Origin: a virus
Reading direction: 5' to 3' (one strand)
Virus record (IMG/VR): IMGVR_UViG_3300045988_123629
DNA length: 64,000 nucleotides
The position numbers and the translations under genes were made by a program. Numbering within the stretch: position 1 is the first letter of the stretch; the number at the start of each line of letters is the position of its first letter. Below, one piece after another: positions 21,289-63,436 of the stretch. The notes under the pieces were generated by a model. The model was given only the letters and a program-made list of their open reading frames with translations. It did no database searches and was not told the origin of the DNA.

Positions 21289-21302
21289 GACCTTAACTTT
21301 GT

Positions 21303-44235: not shown

Positions 44236-44283
44236 TTTTTTAGAAACCATATAAATAGTAATAGTAATAGTTTTTAAAATAGA

Positions 44284-44934: not shown

Positions 44935-45303
44935 AAATTTACGATTGAAGAATTAAAGAAGAATAATGGAGAAAAGGTAGGCGTCTTCCGCAATTGGAAT
45001 GTAATTGCTACTACTAAGAAAGAGTTCTTTAATAGAGAGAATACGCAAGGCGCATATCTTATTTGGGACGATTGTAATAAGTTGGTTTTTAATGGTAAGG
45101 TTCTTGGTCGAATTAGTGAGCAAGGTAAGGTGGAATATATTGAGAGTGAGTATAGATATGTGAAGCCTGTATTAGAAGAGAAACCGCAGGCTACTAATTC
45201 TGTTGCTCCTGGATCTGAGGATGTGGATCTCAGTAAGAGAACGCTTGCTGATGATATTCTTGATAGTGCATTTAAAACAAAGTTGGAGGAGTTGCTTGTA
45301 TGA
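44935..45303 (+). CDS. Hypothetical protein on the plus strand (about 122 aa).
   Basis: ORF 44887-45303 from the track. The internal start at MKFTIEELKK is preferred. No motif. Confidence 0.35.
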   Translation, partial: KFTIEELKKNNGEKVGVFRNWNVIATTKKEFFNRENTQGAYLIWDDCNKLVFNGKVLGRISEQGKVEYIESEYRYVKPVLEEKPQATNSVAPGSEDVDLSKRTLADDILDSAFKTKLEELLV

Positions 45304-45716
45304 GTGGTATTATTTGGTTTTTAATTGGTGTAGCTGTTGGATATTGCATATGGAACGCTGGAAGAGACCGATAATAGACCTATATTGGTTGATTCGCTTC
45401 TGGATAGTGATTAAGTTTTTAGGTTCAGAATCGGATGACGTAGAGTAAAGTGCGGTTGAGTGGAATAATTGATCGGAAATATAGAAATTATTATGAATTG
45501 CTGAAATTTGCGAAAATGCTGGAATGCTGAAATGCTGAAAATTGCGGTCGTGTGGTACCGATCGGTTTAACCAATCACCAACCACATTTTCCCCGTCTCC
45601 GATCTCCGAACCTAAAAAAAAGAGAGACTTTTTTTAGTCTCTCTTTTTTCATATTAGGCAATTCTTGGTGAAATTGTCGATTCTTAGGATGAAAAATATC
45701 TCACCCGACACATTGT

Positions 45717-46094
45717 TCACTTATTGATGAAAGTATTCAAAAAATCGGCAATTACATCATCATCAGTTCTCTTGACCTTCTTAACCTTTACTTTTTCACT
45801 CTTGGGAAAAAGCACGTCAAGAAGATCGTTAACCCCGGTCATAAGACCGTAAACCTCAGCAAAGATGTTCTCCACATCGGACGCGGTCAACGCGGAATCC
45901 TTGTAGCCATTAAGAGCGGCATACTCGTTAATCCGATCGGCGATTTCCTGCGCGAGCGCGGTCTTCCGATCGGCCTGCTTGGTTTCCTTCTCCACCTGCT
46001 TAACCGCATCGTTCAGAGACTTAGCCATTTCGTCCGCAATAGCCTGAGCGTCCTCACCATTTTTCAGACGAGCAATAATATCATTCATATCCAT
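45717..46094 (-). CDS. Hypothetical protein (125 aa, helical, acidic).
   Basis: AAGAGG RBS followed by ATG (MDMNDIIARL...). The promoter is TTGACA-N17-TATAAT at about 46125-46153. The track ORF extends spuriously upstream. Confidence 0.45.
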   Translation of the reverse strand: MDMNDIIARLKNGEDAQAIADEMAKSLNDAVKQVEKETKQADRKTALAQEIADRINEYAALNGYKDSALTASDVENIFAEVYGLMTGVNDLLDVLFPKSEKVKVKKVKRTDDDVIADFLNTFINK

Positions 46095-46610
46095 ATGAAT
46101 ACCTCTTTTCTTATTTTCTATATATATTATATACTTTTTTTTTAAAAATGTCAAGATTTTTTTAAATGAAAACATACGTGTGAAACAATGTAAGGGCGAA
46201 GCAATTTTTAATTAATCATAAAGGCATATGATCCTACGCGGGCTTAAAAAAGTCTTTTTTTATTATTATAACATATTTTTTATAAAAAGTCAATTTTCGG
46301 GATTTTTTTGGGCCATATGGAGAGGTGCTAGAAGTATGAGAAATTTTGCATATGGGTATACCGATCGGAAACTCGGCCCGGCACGTTCCACCGCGGGCCG
46401 GCCAAATAAACTGAGCATTCCGGGATTTTAGTCTGAGTCTATTTTAGACGCTTTTTTCGCGCAAAATTTGCTAAACCTATAATTATTTCGAAATTCCGCC
46501 CGGAGCGTCAGTGATCGGGCGGTCCATTATACCACATTTTCCGATCGGTGTCAATAGGCAAAATACACAAAAAAAATCAGCAGGTTTTAGCCAACCTGCT
46601 GATTGAATAT

Positions 46611-47027
46611 TTATGCAAGAAATGCGCTTACAATTTCATCGAAAACCGTGGGGTTAATGTCCACGTTAAAAAAGCGGTCATTCTTGCGGAACGCTTTGGG
46701 GTATCGTCTAATCAGTTCCGCACGCAACGCGCTTTCCGCACCCTCGGCGGGATAGTCCCCGCAAGAACGGATTCGATGAACTTCAACGCGCGTGATAGAA
46801 TACTTTTTCGAGTATTCGCCGATTTCATCACGCAAGCGCCCTACAACGTCTTTTGCGGACGTGCCTACCTTGTTAAATTCAAGTTTGTTGTTGTTGTAAA
46901 ACTTGAAAAAGTAGACCGCTTGAACGTCTTTCAGATTCTCGCCACAATTAGGCATAAACTCCATTGAAACGGGTGGTCTACCGTCCTTAAATCGGCGTAG
47001 CTTAATAGTAATTTCTTCCATCGGCAC
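46611..47027 (-). CDS. Hypothetical protein (138 aa).
   Basis: AGAGAGGA RBS. A 28-nt hairpin element (47051-47078) lies in the 5' leader. This element is duplicated at 50161-50188. Confidence 0.4.
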   Translation of the reverse strand: MPMEEITIKLRRFKDGRPPVSMEFMPNCGENLKDVQAVYFFKFYNNNKLEFNKVGTSAKDVVGRLRDEIGEYSKKYSITRVEVHRIRSCGDYPAEGAESALRAELIRRYPKAFRKNDRFFNVDINPTVFDEIVSAFLA

Positions 47028-47144
47028 AAAATCCTCTCTATTGATTGAGGTTTACCATCGTTCTCTCAACCATTATTTTTTACCCTTTTTTGCTTGTTTT
47101 TGGGTGAAAAACCGCATTTTTCAGCGGTTTTTCACCCTTTTTCG

Positions 47145-47552
47145 TCAGTTTTTGGGCTTTCGCTTTTGAATCAGGGTCAATTCATAGTCATTTTCGCCCA
47201 CATGGAACGCAATCATGCGCTCGACATTCGTAATTTCTACATTTTCGCACGCATTTTCGCTGTTTTCACGCAAAAAAGTCGCAAGTTCAGCGATAATCGA
47301 GCGTTTTGTGGGGTTTTCCTTGCGCTGTCGCTTCTCAAACTTATAAGCGGTCGGCGCTTTGCGTGTTCCGGTCTTAGAATACTTGTTAGCTTCTTTCAGC
47401 TTTTCCGCGGACAGGTCAAAGTCCTTGGCGATTCCATGGTCAATGTCATCATCGTCCATGAGAATTTCTTTTGCTTCCTCGGCAGTACAATCCAACTTTT
47501 TCATCAGATTATCAATCTTTGCCTGAAAGTCCTTTTCACTCATTTTAGGCAT
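47145..47552 (-). CDS. Hypothetical protein (135 aa), charged.
   Basis: ORF from the track. It is followed by a strong terminator hairpin GGGTGAAAAACCGC...GCGGTTTTTCACCC at about 47100-47140. Confidence 0.4.
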   Translation of the reverse strand: MPKMSEKDFQAKIDNLMKKLDCTAEEAKEILMDDDDIDHGIAKDFDLSAEKLKEANKYSKTGTRKAPTAYKFEKRQRKENPTKRSIIAELATFLRENSENACENVEITNVERMIAFHVGENDYELTLIQKRKPKN

Positions 47553-47652
47553 TTCTTTTGCCCCCTTTCAAGTATGATTATAACACCGCCGTCAGCAAAT
47601 GTCAAGAGAAATTTTTGGGAGCGCCTAATTTTTTTTAGGCGCTCCCCCTGAA

Positions 47653-48030
47653 TCAGTGAGCGAGACGGAAGTAGGACTTGCGCTTGTCCACAATCTTCTC
47701 GACGCCGTTCGCTTCAATCATCTGACGCAGAAGAGCGGAAACGCGCTGGTTGGTGAGGTCGCCCAGACCGTCCACGTTCTTGATGAGGTCGGTCACGGTG
47801 TACAGCTTGTCAGGATTCGCGGACAGCTCAGCGAAGATAATGTCCTTGTAGCCGTCGTTGGCAATCTGATTCGCGGTCGGCTTCTTATCTCCCGAGTTCT
47901 TACGAGCCAACAGGTCAATCTCGTGATTGATAAACTCAACCATAGCGGGGTCAGCCTGAACCTCGCTCATTTTGAGCAGAGCCTCGAAACGGTCGCGCTT
48001 GGTGAGCTTCTTAACAGTAGAAGTAGACAT
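47653..48030 (-). CDS. Winged-helix-like protein. Paralogue of 50276-50650 (about 75 percent identical).
   Basis: AAAGGAA RBS followed by ATG (MSTSTVKKLTKRDRFEALLKMSEVQ...). The promoter is TTGACA-N17-TATACT at about 48066-48100. Confidence 0.5.
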   Translation of the reverse strand: MSTSTVKKLTKRDRFEALLKMSEVQADPAMVEFINHEIDLLARKNSGDKKPTANQIANDGYKDIIFAELSANPDKLYTVTDLIKNVDGLGDLTNQRVSALLRQMIEANGVEKIVDKRKSYFRLAH

Positions 48031-48758
48031 AGTATCAATTCCTTTCTTTGGCGGTAGGTCGCTACCCTTTTGATATATTGAGTATACCACATTTTAGAGT
48101 GCTTGTCAAGAGGTTTCACAAACTTTTCACACGAATTACTACCCCGACCTGACGGATAATTTATTGTTTGTTGATTCAATCTATTTGTCAGCGGAAAACC
48201 GCGTCAAGGATAGTTGGTTCAATCAAACTCACTTTCGCGTTCAACGTTTGGCTTTACAACGTGGTGTATTATGTTTTCTTCCTGTACTTTCTCAAGGTCG
48301 CGCGCCCTCGGATTTCTTGGGCTACTCCCTCTTGACATTTTCTATTGTAGCACACTCGCTGGGATTTGTCAAGAGGTTTTCAAGAAAAAACTCATGAATT
48401 TTTTCTTTTATCCCGTGCGTTCCGCTCCGAAGAGACCTTAACGTAATAGGTGAACGGTCTATTGCTACTTCCAACCGTAGCCCCACACCGACCTGTGGCT
48501 CAGGGGTTCCCCTCTTGACATTATCTATTATAACAGATTGCCCACGGATTACAATTGACAAAATAACCAAATTACGGGAAAAAATTTTCTTTACTTTTGT
48601 GCAACTTTTCTCTTGACAAAATTGGCGGGGCGTGGTATAATGGTGAATTCGGCCCGCTTTGGGCGTTGGCGGGCCGGCCATTTTATCATAAAAGTTCTTG
48701 TTTGTCAATAGACAAAATAGACAAAAAAAACTACCCATTTTTGGGCAGTTTTTTTATT

Positions 48759-49004
48759 TTAGTCCAGCAGGTTAATCTCACCGGGAATTTTGAAAGAATC
48801 AGCGTCCAGTGTGGAATTGTAGTCCTCGGTAAAAAGGTCAATCATTCCACATTCCATGATGTAATTCTGCACCGCCCGCTGAACATTTCTCCAAAGGTCA
48901 ATCTTTCGGCTTTCCTCGCGGGCTTTTCTGGCTTCCTGTATCTGGATAATGAGTTCGTTCAGTTCCTCGTCGGTCATGTAATTCAAATCTAAATCCATTT
49001 TCAA
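48759..49004 (-). CDS. Hypothetical protein (81 aa).
   Basis: ORF from the track. A bidirectional terminator lies downstream at about 48722-48760. Confidence 0.35.
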   Translation of the reverse strand: MKMDLDLNYMTDEELNELIIQIQEARKAREESRKIDLWRNVQRAVQNYIMECGMIDLFTEDYNSTLDADSFKIPGEINLLD

Positions 49005-49288
49005 AACTCCCCTTTAATTGCTTCTTTCCATGCGTCCCAGCCGAATTTTTCCTCGCGGTCTAACTTCTTGCCAATGTCTTTTGCGGTCAGTAGGTCAAGC
49101 TCGTCCGCAATCTCATCTTCAAAGTTTACCCAAGAGTCGTAGGTCTGAATAATGAAAACTTCATCGGCTTCAAAGACGCCACCGCACTCGGCGCAGATAA
49201 TATAGTCATGGTCGATTAAAATGCCCATGTGAGGGTCATTGTCATCAGGGACTACAAAAAGGACTTGTTTAGCGTTCATGTGAAACAC
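49001..49288 (-). CDS. Hypothetical protein (95 aa).
   Basis: GAAAGAGG RBS. The promoter has rc TATAAT at 49309-49314 and rc TTGACA at 49332-49337, with an exact 17-nt spacer. Confidence 0.45.
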   Translation of the reverse strand: MFHMNAKQVLFVVPDDNDPHMGILIDHDYIICAECGGVFEADEVFIIQTYDSWVNFEDEIADELDLLTAKDIGKKLDREEKFGWDAWKEAIKGEF

Positions 49289-49304
49289 CTCTTTCGTTTG
49301 ATGT

Positions 49305-49340
49305 ATTGATTATACCATAGGGAATAGGACTTGTCAAGCC
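49305..49340 (-). promoter_or_regulatory. Representative early promoter of the GC-block class. TTGACA, a 17-nt spacer, then the extended -10 TGGTATAAT. The -35 box is embedded in the terminator hairpin of the upstream gene.
   Basis: Minus-strand reading GGGCTTGACAAGTCCTATTCCCTATGGTATAATCAATACATCAAACGAAAGAGGTG, then ATG. Hairpin GGGCTTGACAAG...CCC. More than 25 instances of this class lie between 45.7 and 63.0 kb (for example 51959-51987, 54087-54115, 56640-56680, 58160-58200, 61295-61335). Confidence 0.7.
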
Positions 49341-49356
49341 CTATTCCCTATTTTTT

Positions 49357-50133
49357 TTAGCTCATGTTTACAACGGGATTTTCCTTAATGTTTCGCATGA
49401 GCGCGCGCTGAAACTCGGTAGGCTTGGGGCGTTCCGCCGTGGGAGTTTTGAAAAGGGACTTTTCCATGGTCTTATGCTGTCGGACGCAATAGCGCAGAAT
49501 CTCAACTTCAATGAGAACATCTTCAAGTCCCGTGTGGGATTCATCAAAGCTGTCCTCACCGCTGATAAAGCGATAAAGAATTTCTGCGGTAAAGCGGAGC
49601 TGTCCGTTCTTGGTCTTGTAGCCGTTCTTTTCGCAATAGTCGCGGTAAGTGGGCATTTTGCCGATAACCTGTCGCGCCATTTTCAACGTGTCCCAAATTT
49701 CGAGGTCGTAGGGAAAGAAATAGCGATACTTGCTTTTCGTGTCCCATCTTTGCGCGTTGTTGCAGGCGTTAAGGTCGAACCGCATATTATGAGCACAGAC
49801 AAAAGAGCAGTTGTAGCGCTCGACACATTCGCAGAACGCAAGACGAATTTCGTAAAGGTCAGCCATAATGCGCGAACCGTTCTTAATGTCCTCAATGTAG
49901 CGGGGAATCTTGTCGGCGTAGTATGCGGACTGCATGAGGTCGCGTTCGTAGCAGAAAATGTCGCGATTCACAAAGGAATGAGTTTCATAAACATTTCCCT
50001 TGGAATCAATGACCGCCCAGCCGAAGTCATAGGGAAGCACATTTGACATATCCAGCTTATCGCCGTCCTGAATGGTGTTTGCGGTTTCCGTGTCCAGCAT
50101 AATGCCGTAGTTTTTGCGCCTATCAATACCCAT
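49357..50133 (-). CDS. DnaQ-like 3'-5' exonuclease (DEDDh family).
   Basis: Exo I MLDTETAN, Exo II CAHNMRFDLNAC and Exo III HTGLEDV(L) are in order. The RBS is AGGAGACG. The duplicated 28-nt hairpin element lies in the leader at 50161-50188. Confidence 0.7.
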   Translation of the reverse strand: MGIDRRKNYGIMLDTETANTIQDGDKLDMSNVLPYDFGWAVIDSKGNVYETHSFVNRDIFCYERDLMQSAYYADKIPRYIEDIKNGSRIMADLYEIRLAFCECVERYNCSFVCAHNMRFDLNACNNAQRWDTKSKYRYFFPYDLEIWDTLKMARQVIGKMPTYRDYCEKNGYKTKNGQLRFTAEILYRFISGEDSFDESHTGLEDVLIEVEILRYCVRQHKTMEKSLFKTPTAERPKPTEFQRALMRNIKENPVVNMS

Positions 50134-50275
50134 CTTATCGTCTCCTATTGGAAAAGTAGATTGAGGTTTACCATCGTTCTCTCAACCTCTGATAATAGTA
50201 TAGCACTTTGCTATTGGTTTGTCAACAGTTTTTTTTGTAGGGCAGGGGATTTTTTTATCCCCTGCCCTTTTCCCT

Positions 50276-50650
50276 TTACGCGAGGGAGAAGTAGGACTTG
50301 CGCTTGTCAACCGTCTTGACAACGGTGTTGGCCTCAATCATCTGACGCAGAAGAGCGGAAACGCGCTGATTGGAGTAGTCCGCAAGCTCGGGAACGCCCT
50401 TGATGAGGTCGGTCACGGTATACAGCTTGTCAGGGTTTGCGGTCATCTCGTCCAGAATGACCTGCTTCACAGTGTCATTCTCCATCTGCTTGGCCGTGGG
50501 CTTCTTGTCGCCCGCGTTCTTCTTGGCGAGCAGTTCAATCTCATGCTCGATGAACGCCACCATGTCAGGATTTGCCTGAACCTCGCTCATTTTGAGCAGA
50601 GCCTCGAAACGGTCGCGCTTGGTGAGCTTCTTAACAGTAGAAGTAGACAT
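50276..50650 (-). CDS. Winged-helix-like protein. Paralogue of 47653-48030.
   Basis: 124-aa ORF. Nearly identical N-terminus MSTSTVKKLTKRDRFEALLKMSEVQ and C-terminus NQRVSALLRQMIEAN..VK.VDKRKSYF. Confidence 0.5.
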   Translation of the reverse strand: MSTSTVKKLTKRDRFEALLKMSEVQANPDMVAFIEHEIELLAKKNAGDKKPTAKQMENDTVKQVILDEMTANPDKLYTVTDLIKGVPELADYSNQRVSALLRQMIEANTVVKTVDKRKSYFSLA

Positions 50651-51139
50651 AGTATCAATTCCTTTCTGGTTTTTAAGACTGTCCTTGTCTTTGATGTAGT
50701 TATTATACCATAAGCGGAGCAGGTTGTCAATAGTTTTTGCAAATTTTTTTTAGGGGCGGTCGCGAGGTTTATTACTATACATCTTGTTTATACCTACCTT
50801 TATCTATACTCATAAACCAATTCATTTTACTAAACCAAATTAGTCTTTAAGGCGGTGGGCGAGCATTAGAAGTCATCTTGTTTTTACCTCTCTCATTTGA
50901 TGTATTCATTATACCCTACGTAGAACGGTTTGTCAAGGGGTTTTTCAAACTTTTTTTGAAAGTTTGTTCGGCACGCCACGCTTGGAACATTCCGTCGGAT
51001 TTTGGTATAATGAATGGTCAAGGGAACTGCCTTTCCGAAGGTCTTACTCTTTCCTCCTGACATTATGTAGTATAGCAGATTGGTAATGATTTGTCTATTG
51101 GTAAAATAGCTAAATAACGGGAAAAAATAAAATTGAAAT

Positions 51140-51300
51140 TTGTGCGAAATTTCTCTTGACAAAAATGCTGGCAGGGTGTATAATGGTAAATTCCGGCCGT
51201 AGCGCGCGGAAACGGCCGGCCCATTATATCACATTCAAGGAATTTTGTCAATGGTCAAAGTAAACAAAAAAATCTCCCCATTTTTGGGGAGATTTTCTTT
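51140..51300. promoter_or_regulatory. Intergenic module. A plus-strand promoter (TTGACA-N17-TATAAT, 51147-51181) and a minus-strand promoter (TTGACA-N17-TATAAT, about 51228-51262) face each other across a pure-GC hairpin (51193-51219). The module ends in a bidirectional terminator (51270-51298).
   Basis: Direct reading. Homologous modules occur at 48600-48780, 53440-53600, 55230-55390, 57210-57520 and 59430-59600. Variants occur at 46290-46560 and 62900-63130. Confidence 0.6.
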
Positions 51301-51722
51301 TAGCCAATCACACTGACTTCGGTTCTGACAGGCGTTACCATCTTGTCGCGCGAGAACTCGCGAACCTGACCTGTTTCAAGATTCACCGCGTAGCAATACT
51401 GCGAACCTCTCGACCGGACAAACGGCGTGTTGTTGTTGCTGTCAATTTTGAGATACATTCCCATACCGCTACCGTTAGAGCGCAGAGTGGTGAACGTGCC
51501 ACCGCTGAGAATGTTGATAATTTGGAGCTGACCCTTAGTGCCAAAATTTACTTTCATTTTTATTTCTCCTCTCTTAAAGCAGATGTTCCTTGACCCATTT
51601 TGCGGTCACGGTCGCGCGTTCTTTGGTGATAACAGTTTCATAGATGAAAAGGTCGTCATCAATCTTTTCAACTACTTTTCCGATGATTCCAACATCAACC
51701 CAAAAATAAGGCATCATTTTTA

Positions 51723-51930
51723 TCACCCCTTTGAACCGACCGAGAAGATGGACTGCAAAAGCACGAGAATAATCCAAATTGCGAGTGCCAGCTTCCACGA
51801 GAACACGATGACGAAAGTGCCGATTGCGGTAATACCGAGGGCGGGAAGAAGCCAACAGAGAAGCCAAACCAGACCAGAGGTAGCAAGGAACGAAAATGCG
51901 AGAGACAGCAGAATCAAAAGAACAAACATT
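51723..51930 (-). CDS. Small membrane protein (68 aa, two TM helices).
   Basis: AAAGGGGAAAA RBS followed by ATG (MFVLLILLSLAF...). The promoter has rc TATAAT at 51959-51964 and rc TTGACA at 51982-51987. Confidence 0.45.
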
Positions 51931-51983
51931 TTATTTTCCCCTTTCATTTGATACATTTATTATACCATTGGAGTAGGGTTTTG

Positions 51984-52484
51984 TCAAGCCCTTTTCTCCA
52001 AAAGTTCCGAAAGTTTTTCGATAATGTTTACTGCGGTTGGGTCAATGGTTTCACCCAAGTGCCAACCATTCCGAACCTTTTCATTATCGTCAACCAAGAT
52101 GGACACGTCATAGCGGTCGCGCACGCTGTCGGCCTTAGTCGCGCCATATTGGACGCCGTGGAAGTGGTCATAGTGGAAGCCCTGTTCTTCAAGCCACGCG
52201 CGCTTTGCTTCACGCACGAGGTTTTTGTATTCCTCGCTCGAATCTTTGGAAAGCCAAGTGATGATGTTGATTTCCCAGCCCTCGGCGCGGAGAAGTTCGC
52301 AAACCTCATTCAATTCAGCCATATCACACATGGGAACGGCAGTCCGATAGGGCTTAGGATTTTCCGAACGGAGAAGTGCAAGCCAATCCTTGACGCCGTA
52401 GAGGTCAGCAATAGTGCCGTCCATGTCAAAGTTGATGGAACGTCGAGTGGCCACAACGTGGGACTTGATGTAAGTGATTTTCAT
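51984..52484 (-). CDS. HAD-superfamily hydrolase, 5'(3')-deoxyribonucleotidase-like.
   Basis: Motif I FDMDGTIADL (DxDGT). Downstream ITWLSKD and ILVDDN motifs. 166 aa. Confidence 0.6.
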   Translation of the reverse strand: MKITYIKSHVVATRRSINFDMDGTIADLYGVKDWLALLRSENPKPYRTAVPMCDMAELNEVCELLRAEGWEINIITWLSKDSSEEYKNLVREAKRAWLEEQGFHYDHFHGVQYGATKADSVRDRYDVSILVDDNEKVRNGWHLGETIDPTAVNIIEKLSELLEKRA

Positions 52485-53603
52485 AGGTATTACCCCTTTC
52501 CTTTACTGTATCTGTATTATACCATACATCTGCGCGGTTGTCAAGAGAAATTTTAGCAATTTCCCGCTTTATTTATCCATTCTTTCCATTCATCTTTGGC
52601 AAACTTTTTATATTCTTCTTGCCAAATACCACCTGCAATGGCTTCTTTTACTGCATCATCAATAGAAAGATATTGGTTGGGAAAAACAAAGTCATCACAA
52701 AAGAACCGAGTTCGACCAAAGAATTTGCGGTTAGGGCGGATAACTTCATCAACAGAGATATAGATTAGCCCATATGATTCATCGTTGTATACCTTAACCT
52801 CAAAGGTTCTTCCCTCATATTCATAAGTTTTCGGCTTACTCATAGCGTTTGCCCTCCTTTACTATGCTTGTATTATACCACTATTGGATTTGCTTGTCAA
52901 GTATTTTTTTCAAAATTTTCGCGGTCTTTCTCAATACACGAAAGATAAGAAATTAAGCAAAATCAGCACAGGAATAGCGTAGACGATATTGAAAGAGTCC
53001 CACCCGAGACTTTCACAGGAATAGGCAAAAATAAAGCCAAAAACGAGGCCGAAAATGCCGATTAAAATAATCATTCTAAATCCTCTATATGACCGTAGTG
53101 TTCGTTGATATGCCATTCAAGATAGGTATTAGTCGCAATCTGAATTTCTCTATCTAACCAGTCGTAAAAGTCCTCGGGGTCGCGGGCCATGCGTTCGTCA
53201 ATAATATCAGCAAGAGAAACGCGATGGGCGATAAACTCTGAAATATCAAGAGAATCCATAGAAGAAAGAAGTTCTTCTACACATTCTCCGCGAGTAGAGA
53301 ACTTTTCAGTAGAAAAATCGTGAGTGTAATACATTGTTTGTATCCCCTTTCTTTACTGTATCCATAGTATAGCAGATTATTACATTCTTGTCTATTGGTA
53401 AAATACCCAAATTCGGGAAAATAATTAGTTGGACTTTTGGCTAAATTTCCTATTGATAAATTGCTGAGATGGTGGTATAATGGAAATTCCGGCCGTGGCA
53501 TGCGCAAACGGCCGGCCATTTTATCACACTATTGGATTTTTGTCAATAGGCAAAATAAATAAAATTTTGAGACGAGATTTGGTTATCTCGTCTCAAAATA
53601 TTT

Positions 53604-54056
53604 TTAACGTTCGGACACAATGCTGAGGTAGCGGACAATCATGTCCATTTCGCAACCCATGTCCTGCTGGTCGCAAACCGCATAACCCACAAGGTCGCCG
53701 TCCGCACAAATCGGGTAAACGCCATAAGTGTTATTGAAAACAAACGGCTTTCTTTTAAAATCCCACTGGGTCGAAACATAAGGCGGAAAGTTTTCCATAC
53801 CCCGCAGTTTCACGATAGTATCATAGATTGCGATGGGACGCAAACCGGAATTTGATGCCATTGTAATAGCGGTTCGCAGAGCTTCTTCGGTCAAAGAGCC
53901 AAGCACCGAATACCTCTGAAAACAAACGCAGTTGTCTTCTCCAAGGAAGATTTCAAGCGGGTCTCCCTCGCGAATCTTCAAAGTTCGGCGAATCTCTTTC
54001 GGAATGACCACACGTCCAAGGTCATCAATTCTGCGGATAATACCAGTAGCTTTCAT
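53604..54056 (-). CDS. AbrB/SpoVT-family (swapped-hairpin) DNA-binding protein with an extended C-terminal domain.
   Basis: The N-terminus MKATGIIRRIDDLGRVVIPKEIRRTLKIREGDPLEIF closely matches the AbrB N-domain consensus. The promoter has rc TATACT at 54087-54092 and rc TTGACA at 54110-54115. Confidence 0.65.
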   Translation of the reverse strand: MKATGIIRRIDDLGRVVIPKEIRRTLKIREGDPLEIFLGEDNCVCFQRYSVLGSLTEEALRTAITMASNSGLRPIAIYDTIVKLRGMENFPPYVSTQWDFKRKPFVFNNTYGVYPICADGDLVGYAVCDQQDMGCEMDMIVRYLSIVSER

Positions 54057-54120
54057 TTTAATTTTCCCCTTTCACTTGATACGTTAAGTATAGCAGAACA
54101 AAAGGCTTTTGTCAAGCCCT

Positions 54121-54603: not shown

Positions 54604-57600
54604 CCTTTCCTTTTTCTATTATAATAATATCATATTATAATAGAAATGTCAATAGAGAGTTTTTAATTTACTCTTTTAATTTTTCTAATAGGTCATCAGC
54701 ACATTCATAGCTGATACTTCTGCGGTCGCACTCGTTGGACAAAGGACAACAAGCGCAGTCATTAAAGGTTTCCGTCCAAACGCGCAACCAGTCAATCAAA
54801 CGCAAAGTGTTAACTTCCTCATACATTGTTATCACTCTCCTTTACTCGGACAAAAAAGACCTTGTTATAGATTTTATTTGCTTTAAGGTCAATCCAAAAA
54901 TACACGTTTCCGCATACTCGATAGATTTTACAAGTCTCTCCGCTAACCTTTTTAACTTCCTCAAACTTCTCTTGCGTGGTGGGGTGGAAAACCGTCAGTT
55001 TGAGAAATATGCAATAGAAAGCCAAAGGAACAAAGCCGATAATCAGAGCAATCCATGCGAGAACGTCAGTTAAGGTATTTTCCCATTCGCACCATTCATC
55101 GGTGATTGTAGCGAACGCAATACCCACGCAAAACGCGAGAATCAACCAATACCATGCCCCCATTATTTTATTCCCCCTTTATTTGTTGTATACATCTTAC
55201 CACATTATAGGATTTTTGTCTATTGGCATTTTACACAAAAATTCGTGCGAAAATTTGTTGAACTTACCTCTTGACAAAAAACTCGGCGCGCCACAATCGT
55301 CCGCGCGCCGACAATTTTATCACATTCAAGGAACTTTGTCAATAGTCAAAGTAAACAAAAAAAATCACCCAATTTGGGTGATTTTTCATTTAGTTTCCTA
55401 CGGCTTCGAGGTCGACGAGAATGGGAACGAGCTTGTCTTCAAGAAGCGCGACACGCTCAATCATTTCATTTGCTGCTGTTCCGCCCGACGGGTATCTCTT
55501 CTGAATGCCGTATCGAGCCATTCTGCACACCGTTTCAACAACCTCGCTCAGTTTCTCATTTTTCATTTTTCTTATCTCCATTCAATTTATTTTTTGGAAA
55601 GGGTGGCGGTTGTTTCAGGCACAACCGCCAAAGCCATAGGAAAGGGGGAGAAAAAACACGAACAAAAGTTCGGTTTTGTCAAGGGATAATCAGTTCCGCG
55701 TCATAGACAGGCCGAACCATGCAGGGCGCGCCAAAGCAGTCGAGATTGTAAGTGTCTAAATTGAGAGCGTTCCATTCTTCTGCACCGGTATCTTCATCAA
55801 CCACAGTCGCGATTTTGATGTAATAGACGTTTCCAGAAGCAGGGTCTTGAAAAATCATACCCTCGGGGAGGTCTTCAAATGCAACCATTTTGTTGCTATG
55901 CTTAACAGTAATTTTCATTTCGTTCACCCTTTATAATAGTATTTGTAAGCCCATTCAATGATTTCATGGCTTGTGGTAGTCCATTCCTCTTTGGGACTAT
56001 CGAACTTTTCCGCATACTTTTTGATGTAGTTATTATACTCCATGCGCGCGGTGTCGTATGCTCCAATAGCCACAATTAAAGCGTGTTTCGCTTCTTCGGC
56101 GTCGGAGACTGCTTTCTTGCGGTCGGGGCAGTCAGGATAAAGGTTAATCACCCCTACGCGCGTAATGGCTTGCCTTGTCTTTTCATAAAGGCGGTCGCGC
56201 TCTTCCCAAACCTTATAAAGCATTTCGTCTGTGTGATTCTCATAGGGATTGAATTTCTTTTCTTTTTTCTTACCGAACATTTTTCTTTTTCTCCTTTTCC
56301 TGTTTATTCCACATTCTATCGAAGAACGCATTTGCGAGGACACGCTTGTAAAGGTTGTCAGGCATGGGGCGCTCACCGTGCTTGTTTCTCCATATCGCGG
56401 TGATTTTATCAATATCCGCGATATAGGCGGTAATGAGTGTGCCATCGGAAGCGCTACGAACGAGAAGAACGCCGGTTGTAGTGATAGTGTAGAGAATATC
56501 GTTCTCAACGCTGTCGATATATGGTTCGCCGATTCCTACATTATCGTAGATGAAGAGCAGACGGTCAATGCGGTCTTGCGTGGCGTGTTTTGACATTTTG
56601 ATAAGCATTTGTTTTACCTCTTTCTTTTCCTCTTGGATTGATTGTATTATACCATATGGGGAGGGGCTTGTCAAGCCCCTTTAATATAATTGTTCCCCAT
56701 CGTGGTAGCGCTCATATTCCGCTTCAAGGAAGTCGAGAATAGTTTCAAAGTCGTCTGCATCTGCGGGGTCTGCAAAGACCTTTTCAAGGACTTCGTTAGT
56801 GTGTCTGTTGTAAACTCGAATCATATCCATTTTACTTACCTCTTTCTTGATTGTATATGTATTATATCATGCGAAAGGGCTTTTGTCAAGCCCTTTTTAT
56901 CAGAAATGATAATTTCTGATGATGGCGTCGAACTTGGGAGCATATACGTTTTCCCACTGTTCTTCAAGAGTCTGGTCATTCGTGCGATATAATTCCCACG
57001 AGACTGCGCCATAAGCGTTATGCTTGAAAAACTCGGCGTCGCAGGGCATCTGCTCGGCATAGAGAAGCTGGGTCTTGATAAAAGAGTGAATGTTGTAGTT
57101 AGTCATTTTATTTACCTCATCTTTCCGTTCCCCTTGGAACAATTATAGTATAGCAAATGCTTAGGCATTTGTCTATTGACGGATCACACAAAATTGGGAA
57201 AAATAATTTGTGCAAATTTTCGCAACTTTTTGCTTGACAAATTGCTGGCCCTGTGATATAATGGAAATTCCGGGCGCGTGGGCCGTGCGCGCCCGGCCGA
57301 ACAACCATTGTTAAAATTTTAACAAAAATGAAATAGAAAGGGCGCGGTAATTATCGGCTACCGCGCAAACCATAGTATGAAAAATTTGTTTACTACTTCA
57401 AGAGGCTTACCATTTCCTCTTGACATGATTATAATACCACAACGGGGCGAGTTTGTCAATAGTTTTTTGAAAAAAAATTTCAGGCGAGATAATTAAATCT
57501 CGCCTGAAAATTATACGTCCCACATGGCTTCCGCAATCCAGAAGTATTCATAGCGGAGTTTGGACTGAATCGCAAACAAGGCGTTCGCAAGTTCTCCGCC

Positions 57601-57709
57601 GTCTTTGTAGTCTTCCGCGTCTGAAAATTTCTGACTTTCTTTCGCAATTCTTTGAGCCAACTTTTCAAGGGCGTCTGCCTGTTCTCTCAAAGCCTGCGGG
57701 ATAGGTTTT

Positions 57710-58066
57710 TCATTCATTATTTGTTTCCCCCTTTGCAAAGTTAGAGGTTAGCTCTAACGTATGTCCGCATTCATCGCAATACCAATAGTAATAAACTGTT
57801 CCATACCGGCCATGAGAAGCATTTACAAATTTCATTTCATTTCCGCAGATGGAGCAATAGCCGTCATTCCATGCTTTTTTGTCGGCATTGTGGTCAGCGA
57901 CTACTGCGCCCGTCATGCCATAGCCAAGAGCGCACGAAATGAGAAGACCAACCAACAGTCTGACTACTGGGTGAGACTTTTCCATGTTGCACCAACAGAC
58001 AAGGCAGACAAATAGCGCAAGGACTGCGCTAAAAATTCCGCCAACAATTAAAAATTCCGTTCCCAT
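57710..58066 (-). CDS. Membrane protein with a C-terminal zinc ribbon.
   Basis: ORF from the track. Two TM helices, then CSICGNEMKF...YCDECGH. Confidence 0.4.
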   Translation of the reverse strand: MGTEFLIVGGIFSAVLALFVCLVCWCNMEKSHPVVRLLVGLLISCALGYGMTGAVVADHNADKKAWNDGYCSICGNEMKFVNASHGRYGTVYYYWYCDECGHTLELTSNFAKGETNNE

Positions 58067-61000
58067 TTTTATTTCCCCTTTTCACATTTAATGCATTGAG
58101 CGTGTGTTCCGCACTTTCCATCGCAATAAGGACATTCCATTATTTTATTCCCCTTTCCTTTGATACATTAAGTATAGCAGAAAAAGGGCTTTTTGTCAAG
58201 CCCTTTTTCTTATTTTTTTTAATTTTCTTTTCTAATGGAATAGTAGGTTCGGCTTCCCTTTTTGGTGTAGGTCAACTTTTTGTCAATCCAACAAAGATGA
58301 CCGCAATACCATGCAACGGTGGCGCAAGGATATTCTTTGCCTGTCTCACGGTAAAGAATAAACTGGATTTCCGTAGGGCACAGGGGCTTTTCCGCCTTTG
58401 AGAGAACGTCGAGCATCATGTTTTTCATCATGGTGTTGCGGATTTCCTGTTTCAGTTTCCGCGCTTCCTGAGCTTCCTCGAATTTCTGGCAAGCCCGTTC
58501 CGCCTGAAACACGTCCATTCCGGTGAAAGTGCCATCATCAAGGCATTTTCTCAAAAGACTATAAACTTCAAAGTTCATCATGTTAGCATTTCCCTTTCCT
58601 TTATTGTGCTTTTATTATAGCATCTGCTTTTGAATTTGTCAAGAAGTTTTTTGGAAAAAAGAGGGAAAAATTTTCCCTCTTTATTTATCCCCAATAGATC
58701 GAAAGAACGTTGTCAATGTAGCTGGCTTTATAGCCATAATTCTGCATAATATCTTTGCAAGCCTGCCTGACGCCCTTGTCATTTAATGAAGCAAGAGAAC
58801 ACTCGTAAAGTGTTTCTCCCGTTCCTGCCACACGCTCAATTTCCGGCATGATGTGGTCTCCGATAAACGCACGCGCGAGGGCATTATTTTTAGCTTGGAT
58901 TTCTTTGCGGACTTCTTCGGCTTTGCGCGTCATTTCATAAGCATATTTAATTTCCATGGTGTTTCTCCCTTTCCTTTGATGCTTTTATTATAGCATAGAG
59001 GGCTTGTTTTGTCAAGCCCTCTATTTAATTTTTTAGCAATAGGCCAGATTCCCGCGCGCCCAGCCATATACGCTGATTTGATTGCACGCCTTGCCGATTT
59101 CAAGTGCCTGCTTCTTGGTCTGCACTCTCTTGGACTTGTCAACATAATAGATGCCGTTCGCAAGCCACACACCGCAGTTTCCGCCGAAGTCCTTGACCGC
59201 ATTGATAGCTTCGCGGGCGGTCTTACACTCAACGCCGTTGGTAGCGACCTGCCAGCCGGACTTGTAGTTGACTTTCTTGCCATATTTGAGAGTCATGCCG
59301 TCGTTTTCAGCGAGTTTGAGAATAGAACGAATGTTAATCATGTTGTAAATCCCTTTCCGGTTTGGTAGGTTTTCCTTCCCTTACTGTGATTATAGTATAG
59401 CACCGATTCGGGATTCTGTCTATTGACACTTTGCACAAAAATTTGCCCCAAAAATTTGTTGAATCTGCCTATTGACAAAAACTCGGCGCGCCAGGTCCGT
59501 TCGCGCGCCGGCCGATTATACCACAAAATTTTGAAATTGTCAATAGGTAAAATGCACAAAAAAATCTTCCCATTTTTGGGGAGATTTTCATTTTTATTTT
59601 TTAGCCATCAACATAAACGATAAGAACATCATCTTTGGCTTTCAAACCGCTGACAGGCAATCCCAGCACCCATTCTTCGCTTACGCCCAAAACCTCACCA
59701 TTCAGAGTCATGCGACCTTTGCGGTCTTTGAGGTAGCGCCCGCAAGTGTTTTCATTTATCACTTCGATGCCGTTCCCCTCATAGAACATCAGCGCGCCCT
59801 TTACCAGACCAATCACATTTTTAACCATGCCCAAAGTCATTTTGTCAACCTCTTTCGTTTTTAATGTCGTTCCCCTTGGAACAATTATAGTATAACATGA
59901 GCTATAATAAAAGTCAATAGGCAAAATGTATAAAAACTCGGCAGGATTTTGTATGTCCTGCCGAGTTTTTTTAGTTCAAACTCTCGATGACTTCGCCGGT
60001 CAGTGCGTCGATAACATCGACCGAAACAACGTTGTCCGCGTCGATGAACTTCTTTGCAAGGATACAAGCGTTTTCCCGCCCGAACACCGGAATTTCATGG
60101 CGATAATAGAATACATCGCTTGCCTTGTAGTTGTAGTAGTTGATAGAAACATTAAATAACATTTGGTTTATCCCCTTTCCTTTTATATTCTTATTATACC
60201 ATAGATTCGGGATTTGTCAATAGTTTTTTTGAAAAAAGTTTGAAAAAAAATAAGAGCGTTTCCGCCCTTATTTCTCATAAACGATAATGTTGTTGCCTAA
60301 CTTTTCAACGCGAGAATCTTCACAAAAGTGATAGGTGAAGTCCGCTGAAAGATGTTTGAGAAATTCGCGTCTCCATTCGCGGGACTTCGGCTCTAATTCA
60401 AAGAGAATGTAAAGCGTTTCCTCTAACCGGTCGAGAAAGTTTTCAGTGTCCGCGATGTTGAATTTGCCCGCGAGCTTCGGAGCAGAAGAAGTGCCAATAA
60501 TAAGAATGTTGTAAGTAGTCATGGTTTTTATCCCCTTTCTTATTGTATCTACATTATAACATTTGCTTCTGGATTTGTCAAGAGTTTTTATAAAAAAATA
60601 AGGGCTTTTTTCAGCCCTTATTCTTAGCACTTGACCCACGTGTTGACTAACTTCCGCTCAATGGTCGCGGGCTTCGTCAGAGTGTTTGCATACGCCTGCG
60701 CTTCTTTCTTAGTCTTAAAGTAAGTCGGCAGGTAATAGCCAAGGCGAGCGCTGTAATTATCTTCGGTGTAAACTCTGTATTTCATCTTTTGTTTTCCCCT
60801 TTCTTTACTGTAATTATAGTATAGCACTTACTTCTGGATTTGTCAAGGGCTTTTATAAAAAAATTAAGGGCTAAAAAGCCCTTAATTTAACACCGCGACG
60901 ACCTCGCCGTTCATGCAGGCGTGGACATCGAACTCCACGCCCTTATAGGTGTCGGAGTAAAGATACGTCCAGTCATCGCCGAGGACATAGGCCAGGGGCT

Positions 61001-62516
61001 TGACAGGAAGAACGCCGTCGAGAAGAGTCTTGATAGTAGTCATTGAATTAACCTTTCTGGTGTTTGGGATTTTCCTTTCCCTTTCTGATATTATAATACC
61101 ACAGACCGCAAAGAATGTCAAGTGTTTTTTTCAAAAAAAAAGAGAAGTTTTTCAACTTCTCTTTCTACGGCGAATCGCTCTCTTTACGCGGTGCTCCACG
61201 TATTCGATGAGCGCACCCGCGCCGATAACACCGACATAGATAGCGAGAAGAACAAGACCATCGTGAGTAGACATTTGATTTACCTCTTTCTTTCTTTTGA
61301 TGTATTCATTATACCAGACAAAGGGGCTTTTGTCAAGCCCCTTTTTTATTTTTTTACAGTTCTTTTCCAACCTTAACAAATACGATTTTCTCCGGTAAGA
61401 CTTCGATGCCCTTAATGCCCGCTTCATTGACTTCCTTGTTCGTGCAAGTCCACCCAAACTCATCTAATGCGTCCCATTCATCGTTCCCGCTGGGAGTCCA
61501 AGTGTTGAATCCATCATCAATCATCACGTCATAGCCCTTGCTGTAAGTCTCCATAATCTGTTCGATAGTCATTTGTTGTATTCCCCTTTCCTTTGATGAT
61601 ACTATTATAGCATTTCGGGATAGGAATGTCAAGTGGTTTTTGGCAAAAAATGGAAAAAATTTTGCTTTAACGCTTTACTGTGGTAAAGTTCGGGCTGGGA
61701 CGCCCTACACGCGCACTACGGCGCAAGAGAAAGAGCGGGAAGCCCGCTCCCGCCCTTAATACATTTCGCTATTGGGTTCAACTGTGAAATACTCGACATT
61801 CCGCAAGTCGAGCTTGCCATAGGATTTGTCATTATACATTGTAGCACCTGTCGCGAGTAAGTCATTCATCTTACCTGCAATCTCCATAGCGCGCTGTTCC
61901 TCGAACGCCTGCTGGAAGAGATAGCCCTGACCGCCCTTAGTGTAATAAACAATGCCGTAAATCATTTTTCATTCCCCTTTCCTTTTGTGATTATAGAATA
62001 CCACACTCTAACTGATTTGTCAAGACCTTTTTGAGAAAAAATCTTTGTTAATTTTTTAACAATCTACGCCGTTGGAAAGAGAGCATTACTGCTCCCTTAT
62101 TCTGCGTAAAGACTTATCAATTCATTTATCTTTTCAATGGCTTCATCAATGTCATCGAGGTAGTTGTCTGCTAACATACTTGCATGGCTGGCTTCCTCGT
62201 AATCATCATACGCGTCGCTGAGTTCCTGTGTGCCAAACTTGTCTGCCTGTTCGAGTGCATCTACCTCGTGCCATGCCCTCGACATCTCACCACGCTTAAC
62301 CTGACAGTCGCGGAACGCCTGCTTGCTTTCGTTCATTAAACGTTCCTTTTCTGCTTTGAGAGCCTTGTAAAAATCCTGATTAGTCATTTGAGTATTCCCC
62401 TTTCTTATTGTATCTACATTGTAGCACATTACCGCGCATTTGTCAAGACCTTTTTTACTCTTCTCTGCTTGTTAATTTTTTAACAATCTTCGCCGATCCG
62501 CAAGAAAGAGAGAGAC

Positions 62517-62879
62517 TTAATAAGCCTCTCTCCATACCTTAATGATTGTATCATCTTCCACAGTATCAGTGTCATTGTCGTTAATCCACAAGAGCAAGAA
62601 GTCGTTGTCATCAATGTTGAGTGCTTCCACGTTCCACAGGTTGTCCTGCTCATCAATGAGCGTCAGGGTATCGTCTTCGCGTGCGTAGACCTCTGCGCCG
62701 ACGAAACGAATGCTTCCGCGCTCCGTACCTGCACCGCACCAATTCTCAATGACCGAGAGGTCGTAGGACTGGGGTGCTTCCTCACAGGCTTCCGCCGTTG
62801 TGTGGTCGTGGAATCCGAAGAAAGACACGGAAAGAATGATGGCAATGGCCATGGTGATGATTTTGGAAACGTTCTTCAT
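62517..62879 (-). CDS. Secreted hypothetical protein (signal peptide).
   Basis: N-terminus MKNVSKIITMAIAIILSVSFFGFHDHTTAEA. A hydrophobic signal with an AEA cleavage-type site. Confidence 0.4.
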   Translation of the reverse strand: MKNVSKIITMAIAIILSVSFFGFHDHTTAEACEEAPQSYDLSVIENWCGAGTERGSIRFVGAEVYAREDDTLTLIDEQDNLWNVEALNIDDNDFLLLWINDNDTDTVEDDTIIKVWREAY

Positions 62880-63436
62880 TTTGATTTACCTCTTTCTTTT
62901 TGATGATACAAGTATAGCACATGACTACTGGATTGTCAATAGTCATTTTGCACAAATGTGATGGCGTAGTTTCGGGTATTTTGACTATTGTGCATTATGA
63001 CGAAGTTTCGGCGAGAAATTTGTGCAAACTGCTGATTTTTATAAAATTCGGCTCGCCACTACCGCCAGCGAGCCGAGCAACGTTTACCGGGGTGTTTGTG
63101 CGGGATGGCATCGTGCGTTCCGCAAAAGAGCGAGAGTAAGGCTGGTATACTCTCAGAGAATAAACGAGTTAGAACCTTATGGATGGGGGTGTATTTCGGG
63201 AAAAAATTTTTTTTGATTTGTGTTTTTTCTTTTGCGTGGACAAAACACAGTCTAAATCAATTTTCAATTTCAAAATACGATTTAAAACAACAAATCAATT
63301 TTCAATTTCAAATTACGAAGAATAATTTTCGATTTTAAATCACGACTTCTTTTTTCTACCTCTTTTAGGTTTTTCACCCCACATAAGAGTGTATAATCCA
63401 GAAGTAGCAGAATAAGTAGCTTTCTGCTGATACTTT

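Follow-up and report, generated by a model that had tools for sequence, protein, structure and literature searches.

We analysed a stretch of 64,000 nt of viral DNA (IMG/VR record IMGVR_UViG_3300045988_123629; hereafter, the window), which contains a contiguous 17-kb array of small gene cassettes (hereafter, the block; Table 1), on the minus strand throughout. We curated 41 open reading frames (ORFs) with a Shine-Dalgarno sequence in the block, from 62,879 to 45,717. Their products are small, with a median of 87 amino acids (range 23-258), and 25 of the 41 do not exceed 100 amino acids. The window belongs to a family of IMG/VR contigs of up to 196 kb whose proteins are 90-98% identical, and more distant contigs were also found. 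An earlier first-pass annotation, made by reading the window's letters, had described the block as a GC-richer array of uniform cassettes, and had suggested that it was a module acquired as a unit.

The density of promoters in the block is far beyond expectation. Exact matches to TTGACA-N16-18-TATAAT numbered 29 in the window (0.10 expected); 22 of these were in the block, 19 of them on its minus strand. Near-perfect sites, with at least 11 of 12 matches and a 17-nt spacer, numbered 33 on the minus strand of the block and eight in the other 45 kb. In 200 dinucleotide-preserving shuffles the corresponding mean was 0.06 and the maximum 1, so that the excess over shuffled sequence is far above chance. 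Promoter-like sites, defined by at most two mismatches, numbered 43 in the block, and intergenic promoters 40. The spacer was 17 nt long in 40 of the 43 sites, and 38 of the 43 had a TG-extended -10 box (TG one base before the -10), which confirms the promoter design read from the sequence. Most -35 boxes in the block are also preceded by an A-run.

Downstream, 28 promoters lead to a Shine-Dalgarno sequence and a small ORF, with a median of 31 nt between the -10 box and the start codon (28-40 nt in 21 of the 28). All 28 leaders have a purine-rich Shine-Dalgarno, frequently GGAAAGGGG or GAAAGAGG, and a repeat finder grouped the promoter-leader units into families with as many as 14 members. The first-pass annotation had counted more than 25 units of identical design: the count holds for the combination of promoter, ribosome-binding site and ORF (28), but "identical" is too strong, since a -35 box embedded in a hairpin is found at only eight of the 40 promoters.

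Promoters elsewhere in the window were said to form a different, AT-rich class. We found that they have the same hexamers and the same 17-nt spacer as those of the block, and differ by a spacer made only of A and T and by the lack of the TG. The members of this AT-spacer family (TTGACA, 17-nt all-A/T spacer, TATAAT without TG, then the conserved leader ATATATAGAAAATAAGAAAAGAGGT) are almost identical copies, found at 12074, 14865, 19404, 20872, 21442, 32935 and 46154 on the minus strand, and they may constitute a differently regulated class.

Using a criterion of at least eight pairs in the stem, we identified the -35 hexamer within a hairpin at eight of the 40 intergenic promoters (Table 1), against a mean of 0.5 and a maximum of 4 in 1000 trials with shuffled flanks. 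The initial claim that each terminator hairpin carries the next -35 box thus applies to roughly one unit in five, and does not extend to the others. A separate terminator, canonical in most cases, precedes about 14 further promoters, ending 11-24 nt before the -35 box. Over all related loci, we collected 83 distinct versions of the -35-embedding hairpins. For the hairpin at promoter 59015, using sequences chosen by a pattern that demanded the inner 3-4 pairs, 93% of the cells in 14 orthologues were paired, with compensatory changes in 7 of 17 pairs; none of 500 shuffles reached its covariation score, and sliding the register lowered the pairing to 27-51%. Mismatches inside the stems were G.T in 39 cases and A.C in 19, counted over mutually related sequences; this excess fits folding of the sense-strand RNA, and is suggestive only. 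The covariation in relatives indicates that the merged hairpins are real structures, and in a subset of cassettes the hairpin that ends one unit does hold the -35 box of the next promoter. A literature search found no report of a -35 box inside a terminator in Gram-positive phages.

The block also differs from its surroundings in base composition. A sliding profile and the best two-boundary likelihood segmentation placed a GC-richer segment at 46,350-63,200 (log-likelihood gain of ~143), with a GC content of 0.431, against 0.357 in the remainder of the window. A step had been predicted at about 45.3 and 63.4 kb, and it is present, with fairly sharp edges near 46.35 and 63.2 kb; the last ORF of the block that is rich in GC at third codon positions (GC3) extends to 45,717. 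GC3 is 0.53 in the block and 0.31 outside (Mann-Whitney p = 2e-8), while GC at the first two positions (GC1+2) is 0.42 both inside and outside, and intergenic GC within the block is 0.37, that is, at background level. Since the step is restricted to third codon positions, it is a difference in codon usage. Across the 41 ORFs, GC3 ranges from 0.31 to 0.75 (mean 0.53, SD 0.09) and is raised in nearly all. Hence the block is GC-richer, as had been noted, but its composition does not serve as a mark of acquisition, because the excess is only synonymous.

No ORF of the block has a TAG in frame, and none ends with one (27 TAA, 14 TGA, 0 TAG). Outside the block, several minus-strand genes are open only if TAG is taken as sense: with TAG read as Gln, codon 23 of one gene is a TAG that falls within a GIY-YIG domain (residues 6-91), and Flg_new (Listeria-Bacteroides) repeats span further in-frame TAGs. 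The window has 21 tRNA genes at 9341-21371 (minus strand), including a suppressor with anticodon CTA at 10004-10093. By these features of its genes, the phage is TAG-recoded. The Leu and Thr codons favoured outside the block are CTT and ACT, matching the phage-encoded tRNA-Leu(AAG) and tRNA-Thr(AGT), whose anticodons are unusual.

We aligned the block with relatives 85-95% identical, among which gene content differs. With respect to the window, we detected six precise cassette-sized deletions. The largest, in contig L027, removes 59007-56894 (2.1 kb, eight ORFs and a candidate RNA unit). Single ORFs are missing from L024 (61586-61316), from L030 (61074-60821), and from both L027 and L030 (52855-52524), whereas L035 lacks three ORFs (53338-52524) and L032 an ORF-less unit (57431-57301). 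Further intervals in relatives are swapped for unrelated sequence of other length. Four junctions were read at base level, and every one proved to be a chimeric promoter or leader: that of L027 joins the left half of promoter 59015 to the right half of promoter 56889, with the crossover within the shared GGGCTTGACAAAA, and the crossovers in L024 and L030 lie between the -10 box and the Shine-Dalgarno. Judging from these alignments, it is the individual cassette, and not the block, that moves.

Most products of the block are orphans. When 30 of them were tested against Pfam and PHROG, 26 hit no family to which a function is assigned, and 21 of these had no hit of any kind; for three the only hits were PHROG families without known function, and for one a weakly matching Pfam domain of unknown function. 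Several can be recognized by eye as membrane or CxxC proteins, and many are tiny membrane or cysteine-rich proteins. Among the recognizable products, the AbrB-like regulator that had been read from the sequence has a clear AbrB/MazE-type domain. The DEDDh exonuclease was also correctly read: its motifs are visible in the sequence, and it matches phrog_20187 at 6e-42 and, weakly, phrog_192 (a polymerase exonuclease family) at 1.5e-4. For the proposed HAD nucleotidase we found weak matches only, to HAD/PNK-phosphatase and deoxyribonucleotidase families. The winged-helix fold ascribed to a duplicated pair of proteins is supported by a predicted structure with a C-terminal winged helix (predicted local distance difference test score, pLDDT, of 80); in Foldseek this structure matched MarR, ArsR and Fur proteins best, with weak E-values from 8e-3. 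Sequence searches against solved structures with the exonuclease, the winged-helix and the HAD-like proteins gave nothing significant, and the structure predicted for a 136-amino-acid product (46611-47021) was unusable (pLDDT of 50).

One unit, driven by promoter 50936, contains just two micro-ORFs, M(T/I)xx(A/V)RPPP-stop and MYSNK(P/A)RDRP-stop, which are kept in relatives. The proline-rich ends of both are reminiscent of leader peptides that arrest the ribosome.

Four cassettes have a promoter but no conserved ORF, and their transcripts begin with AUGUCA(A/G)GAGG; they are probably non-coding, judging from their orthologues. We considered whether the ATGTCAAGAGG-starting transcripts are leaderless mRNAs for proteins beginning with MSRG, and ruled this out, as the ORF varies in length from 7 to 86 codons among orthologues. 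Rfam at gathering thresholds reported only tRNAs in the window, and at E<=1 all that the block gave were chance matches of terminator-like character, every one of them far short of its cut-off (STnc230, Phe_leader, L20_leader and the 3' untranslated region of a plastid).

A further class of elements, found in the block only, consists of nine GC-rich hairpins of 27-29 nt (stem of 7-9 bp, loop of 9-13 nt), located about every 2 kb and at both edges (Table 1). One of them is the sequence that the first-pass annotation had quoted as an example of the richer composition. At least six directly follow a -10 box. A plus-strand consensus promoter, reading antisense to the array, lies beside four of the nine (48613, 51156, 53453 and 57234), and three of these four also have a sense promoter, resulting in convergent promoters ~40 bp apart. 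Over all loci, a GC-type hairpin follows 57 of 148 distinct antisense promoters, compared to 74 of 856 sense promoters. The hairpin begins 7-8 nt past the -10 box of the antisense promoter, and it is exactly 27 nt long in 43 cases. The stems covary, although this count is biased, the sequences having been chosen for having a stem. Distant relatives keep only the antisense promoter and the GC hairpin.

Folding suggests an RNA that would start from the antisense promoter with a 5' hairpin, followed by an A/U-rich linker and, in this lineage, by the neighbouring bidirectional terminator. Tentatively, and with the odds rather against it, the nine hairpins could encode a family of very small phage RNAs, and would then be more than mere terminators; this idea draws on the consensus promoter oriented against the array, the hairpin at a fixed offset from it, at the start of transcription, and the constant hairpin geometry, in the window and in the 100-400-kb relatives, as well as on the covarying stem and the variable loop. 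In this lineage the predicted RNA would measure ~40 nt (hairpin and U-run) or ~110 nt (up to the bidirectional terminator). Such an RNA could possibly regulate, in antisense, the 3' end of the early mRNA upstream (the gene of the AbrB-like regulator is among the four genes upstream of the antisense promoter-hairpin elements), or serve as a decoy for a host RNA-binding factor. Another possible role of the antisense promoter-hairpin would be to boost, through transcription, a weak divergent promoter (TAGACA-17-TATACT) ~65 nt away. If the small RNAs exist, they would make, together with the four AUGUCAAGAGG-starting ORF-less cassettes, the early region a dense source of non-coding RNA. We also considered sequence-specific protein operators, against which it speaks that the stem sequence varies between copies with compensation. 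With a stem of 7-9 bp and a loop of 9-13 nt, the geometry also does not appear to fit CRISPR-repeat mimics, N4-type hairpin promoters or protein operators.

Table 1. Coordinates of the cassette array and of the features located in it.
Feature	Coordinates	Strand	Remarks
Cassette array	45717..62946	minus	~36 transcription units, 41 small ORFs, 40 intergenic sigma-A-type promoters
AbrB/MazE (SpoVT-type) DNA-binding protein, 150 aa	53604..54056	minus	Pfam PF04014 7e-10; PHROG 5e-19
HAD-like phosphatase or nucleotidase, 166 aa	51984..52484	minus	PHROG 415 and 2643, ~1e-7; Pfam below cut-off
Winged-helix protein, 124 aa	50276..50650	minus	Paralogue of the 47653-48030 product
DnaQ-like DEDDh exonuclease, 258 aa	49357..50133	minus	Motifs LDTET, HNMRFD, H-x4-D
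Second winged-helix copy, 125 aa	47653..48030	minus	77% amino acid identity to the 50276-50650 product
Promoter 50936 unit with only two conserved micro-ORFs	50750..50876	minus	Just upstream of winged-helix gene
Two promoter-driven units without conserved ORF (48376-48521 and 48100-48338)	48100..48521	minus	Both begin AUGUCAAGAGG; candidate non-coding RNAs
Candidate non-coding RNA, 5' hairpin and terminator	57328..57426	minus	Folding z = -2.6; absent from L032
Hairpin ATGACTATTGACAATCCAGTAGTCAT holding -35 of first promoter 62939	62921..62946	minus	
Hairpin AAAGGGGCTTGACAAAAGCCCCTTT holding -35 of promoter 61336	61320..61344	minus	
Hairpin ATAGAGGGCTTGACAAAACAAGCCCTCTAT holding -35 of promoter 59015	58995..59024	minus	Orthologues with compensatory changes, 7/17 pairs
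Hairpin holding -35 of promoter 58199	58179..58210	minus	
Hairpin holding -35 of promoter 56889	56874..56896	minus	Crossover site of the 2.1-kb deletion of L027
Hairpin AGGGGCTTGACAAGCCCCT holding -35 of promoter 56674	56662..56680	minus	
Hairpin holding -35 of promoter 54115	54096..54126	minus	Upstream of AbrB-like gene
16-bp hairpin holding -35 of promoter 49337	49317..49351	minus	
GC-rich hairpin, stem 9 bp, loop 11 nt	63048..63076		Upstream edge of block
GC-rich 27-nt hairpin	59484..59510		Directly after sense promoter 59543, then T-run
GC-rich 27-nt hairpin	57270..57296		Start of transcript from antisense promoter 57234-57262 (+)
GC-rich hairpin GGCGCGCCACAATCGTCCGCGCGCC	55283..55311		Directly after sense promoter 55342, then T-run
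Convergent promoter pair, 53546 (-) and 53453-53481 (+)	53453..53546		Around GC hairpin 53489-53515
Convergent promoter pair, 51251 (-) and 51156-51184 (+)	51156..51251		Around GC hairpin 51193-51219
Convergent promoter pair, 48708 (-) and 48613-48641 (+)	48613..48708		Around GC hairpin 48650-48676
Two GC hairpins, 46374-46400 and 46496-46522	46374..46522		Downstream edge; L027 and L030 lack the stretch between

A nucleotide search with the whole block found no match among deposited phages. Based on the exonuclease, the nearest cultured relatives are the ~140-kb Enterococcus phages EF1, EF5, VRE9 and H1 (39% identity to the EF1, H1 and VRE9 proteins), and the TAG-recoded phage phAss-1 (PMC10607447) also matches this protein. 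A promoter-dense block was in the same place in all relatives examined, with exonuclease identities from 98% down to 44-45%, and distant contigs of 100-400 kb, reached through the AbrB-like gene, also carry one at that place. Each of the relatives' blocks has 11-31 near-consensus promoters on the gene strand. Most are GC-richer than their flanks, though not clearly so in L018, L020 and L021. Enterococcus phage H1 has a run of small genes with the same cassette design, ending in syntenic HAD-like and exonuclease genes, in which the -35 box is inside a hairpin at 7 of 12 promoters (e.g., AAAAGGCTTGACAAGCCTTT). Within the cassette array of H1 (L101, OP534061.1) there is also an 800-nt gene-free stretch (5800-6620) with ATAAAATAACA-type and TTTGTGAA repeats, and with an antisense consensus promoter reading into a short GC hairpin.

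Searching bacterial genomes for the motif, we identified two contigs in metagenome-assembled genomes (MAGs) of Acutalibacteraceae: L102 (JAZOAO010000017.1), with 18 consensus promoters in 8 kb, and L103 (JAZQKX010000012.1), with 10 in 5.5 kb. L103 has similarity to the HAD-like gene of the window and to its hairpin elements. Both are probably phage contigs that were mis-binned with their host, and they give a weak hint of a Clostridia host.

The block closely resembles the "promoter-early stem-loop" (PeSL) elements described in the hyperplastic regions of T4-type phages (Arbiol et al. 2010, PMC2839356; Comeau et al. 2014, PMC4122927). PeSLs consist of a strong sigma-70-like promoter with an A/T-rich upstream tract, a stem-loop, often of the form GGGG...CCCC, that lies upstream of, between, over or after the -35/-10 boxes, and a Shine-Dalgarno sequence. 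They flank orphan ORFs and mediate their insertion, deletion and replacement by homologous recombination, and both promoter and terminator activities have been demonstrated experimentally (PMC2839356, PMC4122927). All the sequence-level PeSL features that we tested are found in the block: a consensus promoter for the host sigma factor with an A/T-rich upstream region; a stem-loop before or over the promoter (here, eight over the -35 box, ~14 upstream, and at least six after the -10 box); a Shine-Dalgarno and a start codon at the 3' end of the motif; small orphan ORFs alongside, with gene content that varies between relatives; and cassette indels with crossovers in the shared motif. As far as relationships can be read from the genes, the resemblance is one of design and not of descent, because the nearest cultured relatives are the ~140-kb Enterococcus phages and the phAss-1 group; unlike the PeSL phages, this phage is not T4-type and belongs to a lineage of probably Gram-positive (Clostridia/Enterococcus-type) hosts. 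There are other differences. The cassettes form here one contiguous array, whereas PeSLs occur in several interspersed regions. The commonest merged form here has the -35 box in the loop and 5' arm, while in phi1/RB49 the stem-loop usually lies between the -35/-10 boxes or over the -10. Convergent promoters around GC hairpins and ORF-less cassettes are found here, and the GC3 and stop-codon regime is apart from the rest of the genome.

Other known systems share part of this design. The host-takeover module of Bacillus phage SPO1 (genes 37-60) spans ~12 kb, with 26 small early genes in many short operons, and its promoters and ribosome-binding sites are described as typical of highly expressed genes (Stewart et al. 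1998, as cited in PMC6873191). Like the block, it groups small genes, most of them with orphan products, behind strong host-sigma promoters and ribosome-binding sites in a phage of Firmicutes. The SPO1 module sits in the terminal redundancy. In the portions of the SPO1 literature consulted we found no description of cassette shuffling or of hairpin-merged promoters. The early "Tre" genes of Staphylococcus phage K and related phages lie in long terminal repeats, with 24 genes in six units whose expression peaks within 2 minutes, and they share with the block the sigma-A consensus promoters, the frequent extended -10 and the small genes of unknown function (PMC11598898); the block, however, is divided into ~36 mostly mono- or bicistronic units. 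We detected no protein homology to SPO1 products or to early genes of phage K. Finally, for recoded gut phages a model has been put forward in which early genes are written in the standard code (Borges et al., bioRxiv 10.1101/2021.08.26.457843; phAss-1 group, PMC10607447). Like the phages described there, the present one encodes a suppressor tRNA(CTA), has TAG codons in frame in genes for structural and other proteins, and keeps a subset of its genes readable in the standard code. Here this subset is set apart also by GC3 (+0.22) and by its promoter-cassette architecture, a separation that we did not find in the searched parts of these two reports.

Taken together, we consider the block to be an array of early, host-RNA-polymerase-dependent host-takeover or accessory cassettes, in a ~190-kb virulent TAG-recoded phage of gut Clostridia, with a probability of about three in four. 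The array comprises ~36 self-contained cassettes, each with an A-tract, a -35 box, a 17-nt spacer, a TG-extended -10 box, a leader of ~30 nt with a strong Shine-Dalgarno, and 1-3 small ORFs. Most close with a stem-loop, sometimes fused with the next promoter to save space, the -35 box then lying in the loop and 5' arm. Folding in the sense RNA, this stem-loop would most likely end or attenuate the upstream transcript, insulating neighbouring cassettes from one another. Because promoter and leader (~60-100 nt) are near-identical between cassettes, they would double as sites of homologous recombination, which would delete, insert or replace single cassettes between related phages, following the PeSL logic. 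The higher GC would represent codon usage for the unmodified host translation, before the phage tRNAs and the TAG suppressor exist, to which the genes of the block appear adapted; genes outside the block would be written for the translation apparatus that follows their appearance. The products would have a host-takeover function. The first-pass annotation had proposed host-takeover or anti-defence cargo: that the block is strongly expressed early or takeover cargo is the part best supported, while no known anti-defence family was detected among the 30 products.

Several observations weigh against this interpretation. Early timing is deduced from the type of promoter and from analogy, and the AT-spacer promoters found elsewhere share the consensus hexamers, so that temporal classes cannot be told apart by the consensus alone. 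Among the 30 products compared with Pfam and PHROG, none matches a known family of host-shutoff or anti-defence proteins, and the two cassette-dense contigs in Acutalibacteraceae MAGs are all that hints at the host. With the criterion used, a hairpin is lacking near 15 of the 40 promoters. Of the eight -35-embedding hairpins, only about half are followed by a U-tract in the sense direction, and efficient sense termination is therefore uncertain for the others; because of the A-tract upstream, these hairpins score better as terminators on the opposite (plus) strand. The covariation of the hairpins, finally, was measured in sequences selected through their innermost pairs.

In a different explanation, the -35 hairpins could act on DNA or on antisense transcripts, and not mainly as sense terminators: as recombination hot spots, as terminators for antisense promoters, or as cruciforms that modulate promoter activity. 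With the A-tracts upstream, the hairpins fit the terminator consensus on the plus (antisense) strand, and on the sense strand only in part; there are four consensus antisense promoters in the block; one crossover falls exactly within a -35 hairpin; and the PeSL authors speculated that GGGG...CCCC stems could be targets of a recombination protein (PMC2839356). We nevertheless regard this as unlikely, if worth keeping in mind, since the surplus of G.T over A.C mismatches favours folding of the sense RNA, the hairpins come directly after stop codons, where other cassettes have canonical terminators, most crossovers are in the -10 box or the leader, outside the stems, and PeSL stem-loops have been shown to terminate transcription. 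Somewhat less probable still is that the block is an accessory ("moron") region expressed all through infection, for example for anti-defence or superinfection exclusion, with its GC3 arising from the mixed origins of the cassettes. In its favour are the cassette content, which differs between close relatives, the many tiny membrane or cysteine-rich products of unknown function and the wide span of GC3 among ORFs. However, GC3 is raised in nearly all 41 ORFs, unlike in a patchwork, TAG is absent from them both in frame and as a stop where genes elsewhere are recoded, and the analogous arrays of SPO1, phage K and T4-type phages are early.

The remaining alternative, a foreign island gained as one unit by horizontal transfer that keeps the composition and promoter style of its donor, corresponds to the acquired module of the first-pass annotation. 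Its appeal lies in the GC step (0.43 vs 0.36) with its fairly sharp edges, in the different composition of promoter spacers in the rest of the window, and in the orphan status of most products. Yet the block is in the same place in relatives down to 45% protein identity and in the contigs of 100-400 kb, and a cultured Enterococcus phage has the same design. GC1+2 is equal inside and outside, intergenic GC is at background, and the excess is confined to third, synonymous positions; the promoter hexamers and spacing match those of the rest of the window, and what is exchanged is the single cassette. We thus consider the foreign island largely refuted, and very improbable.

If the block is an early cassette array, several implications follow. 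In the literature searched, shuffling promoter-terminator cassettes have been described only for T4-type phages of Gram-negative hosts, and the same logic in unrelated large phages of Firmicutes suggests that such cassettes arose convergently, as a general way to carry early genes that evolve fast. The standard-code genes of this TAG-recoded phage are marked not just by their lack of TAG but also by a synonymous codon regime and a promoter architecture of their own. This offers a simple way to delimit early genes in uncultivated recoded phages from their sequence, and opens to testing the proposed translational switch from the decoding of the host to that of the phage; H1, EF1/EF5 and VRE9, as cultured relatives, provide an experimental route. 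The consensus promoters and compact terminator-promoter junctions are also possible parts for synthetic biology in Gram-positive bacteria.

Two other motifs were noticed in the block. The perfect palindrome TGTTAA-N4-TTAACA occurs at 57309-57324, 62046-62061 and 62470-62485, in the block only and each time upstream of a promoter; these three perfect copies compare with 0.59 matches expected by chance even with one mismatch allowed, and the palindrome is a candidate operator for one of the DNA-binding proteins of the block. A leader hairpin, GGTTGAGAGAACGATGGTAAACCTCAATC, is common to two unrelated genes, those of the exonuclease and of the 136-amino-acid ORF (50145-50190 and 47038-47075, minus strand), and may be a shared translational or stability element.

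At the edges of the block, two direct copies of TTTGAAATTGAAAATTGATTT (63250-63335, minus strand) are found in an AT-rich gap directly upstream. On the other side, among the related contigs L002/L033 and L005/L022, two cease to match the window at 45,537 and stop 50-135 nt further on, just past the block, beside a low-complexity stretch resembling (CAGCATTT)n (window ~45480-45540), and the other two terminate inside the duplicated winged-helix gene. These contig ends could reflect a genome terminus or an assembly break induced by repeats.

Directly beside the block, at 43300-44240 (plus strand), we found iterons AAATGGTCAAAAATTTCTATAT, with at least five copies at 43330-43470 and three at 44165-44230, flanking a plus-strand ORF that starts at 43653 and is open to ~44140 only with TAG as sense. 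The region has a GC content of 0.26-0.31 and is the sole stretch with positive GC skew; it resembles a replication origin accompanied by the gene of its initiator. Between the iterons and the block, 44625-44790 consists of ~3.5 tandem copies of a 42-nt unit, GGGGTATTATTGACTTCGGGCATAAATGCCCTCGTTTATA, with a small hairpin in each.

Farther away, the tRNA region is interspersed with AT-spacer consensus promoters and with genes for GIY-YIG (17598-18389) and HNH (13280-13894) endonucleases, which themselves hold in-frame TAG. Two minus-strand regions, 7330-8823 and 21451-24161, encode proteins that are rich in glycine and serine and look like tail fibres or surface repeats; each has 5-8 TAG codons in frame. 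One of these proteins has the Listeria-Bacteroides repeat domains, and GC3 there is as low as 0.13-0.29.

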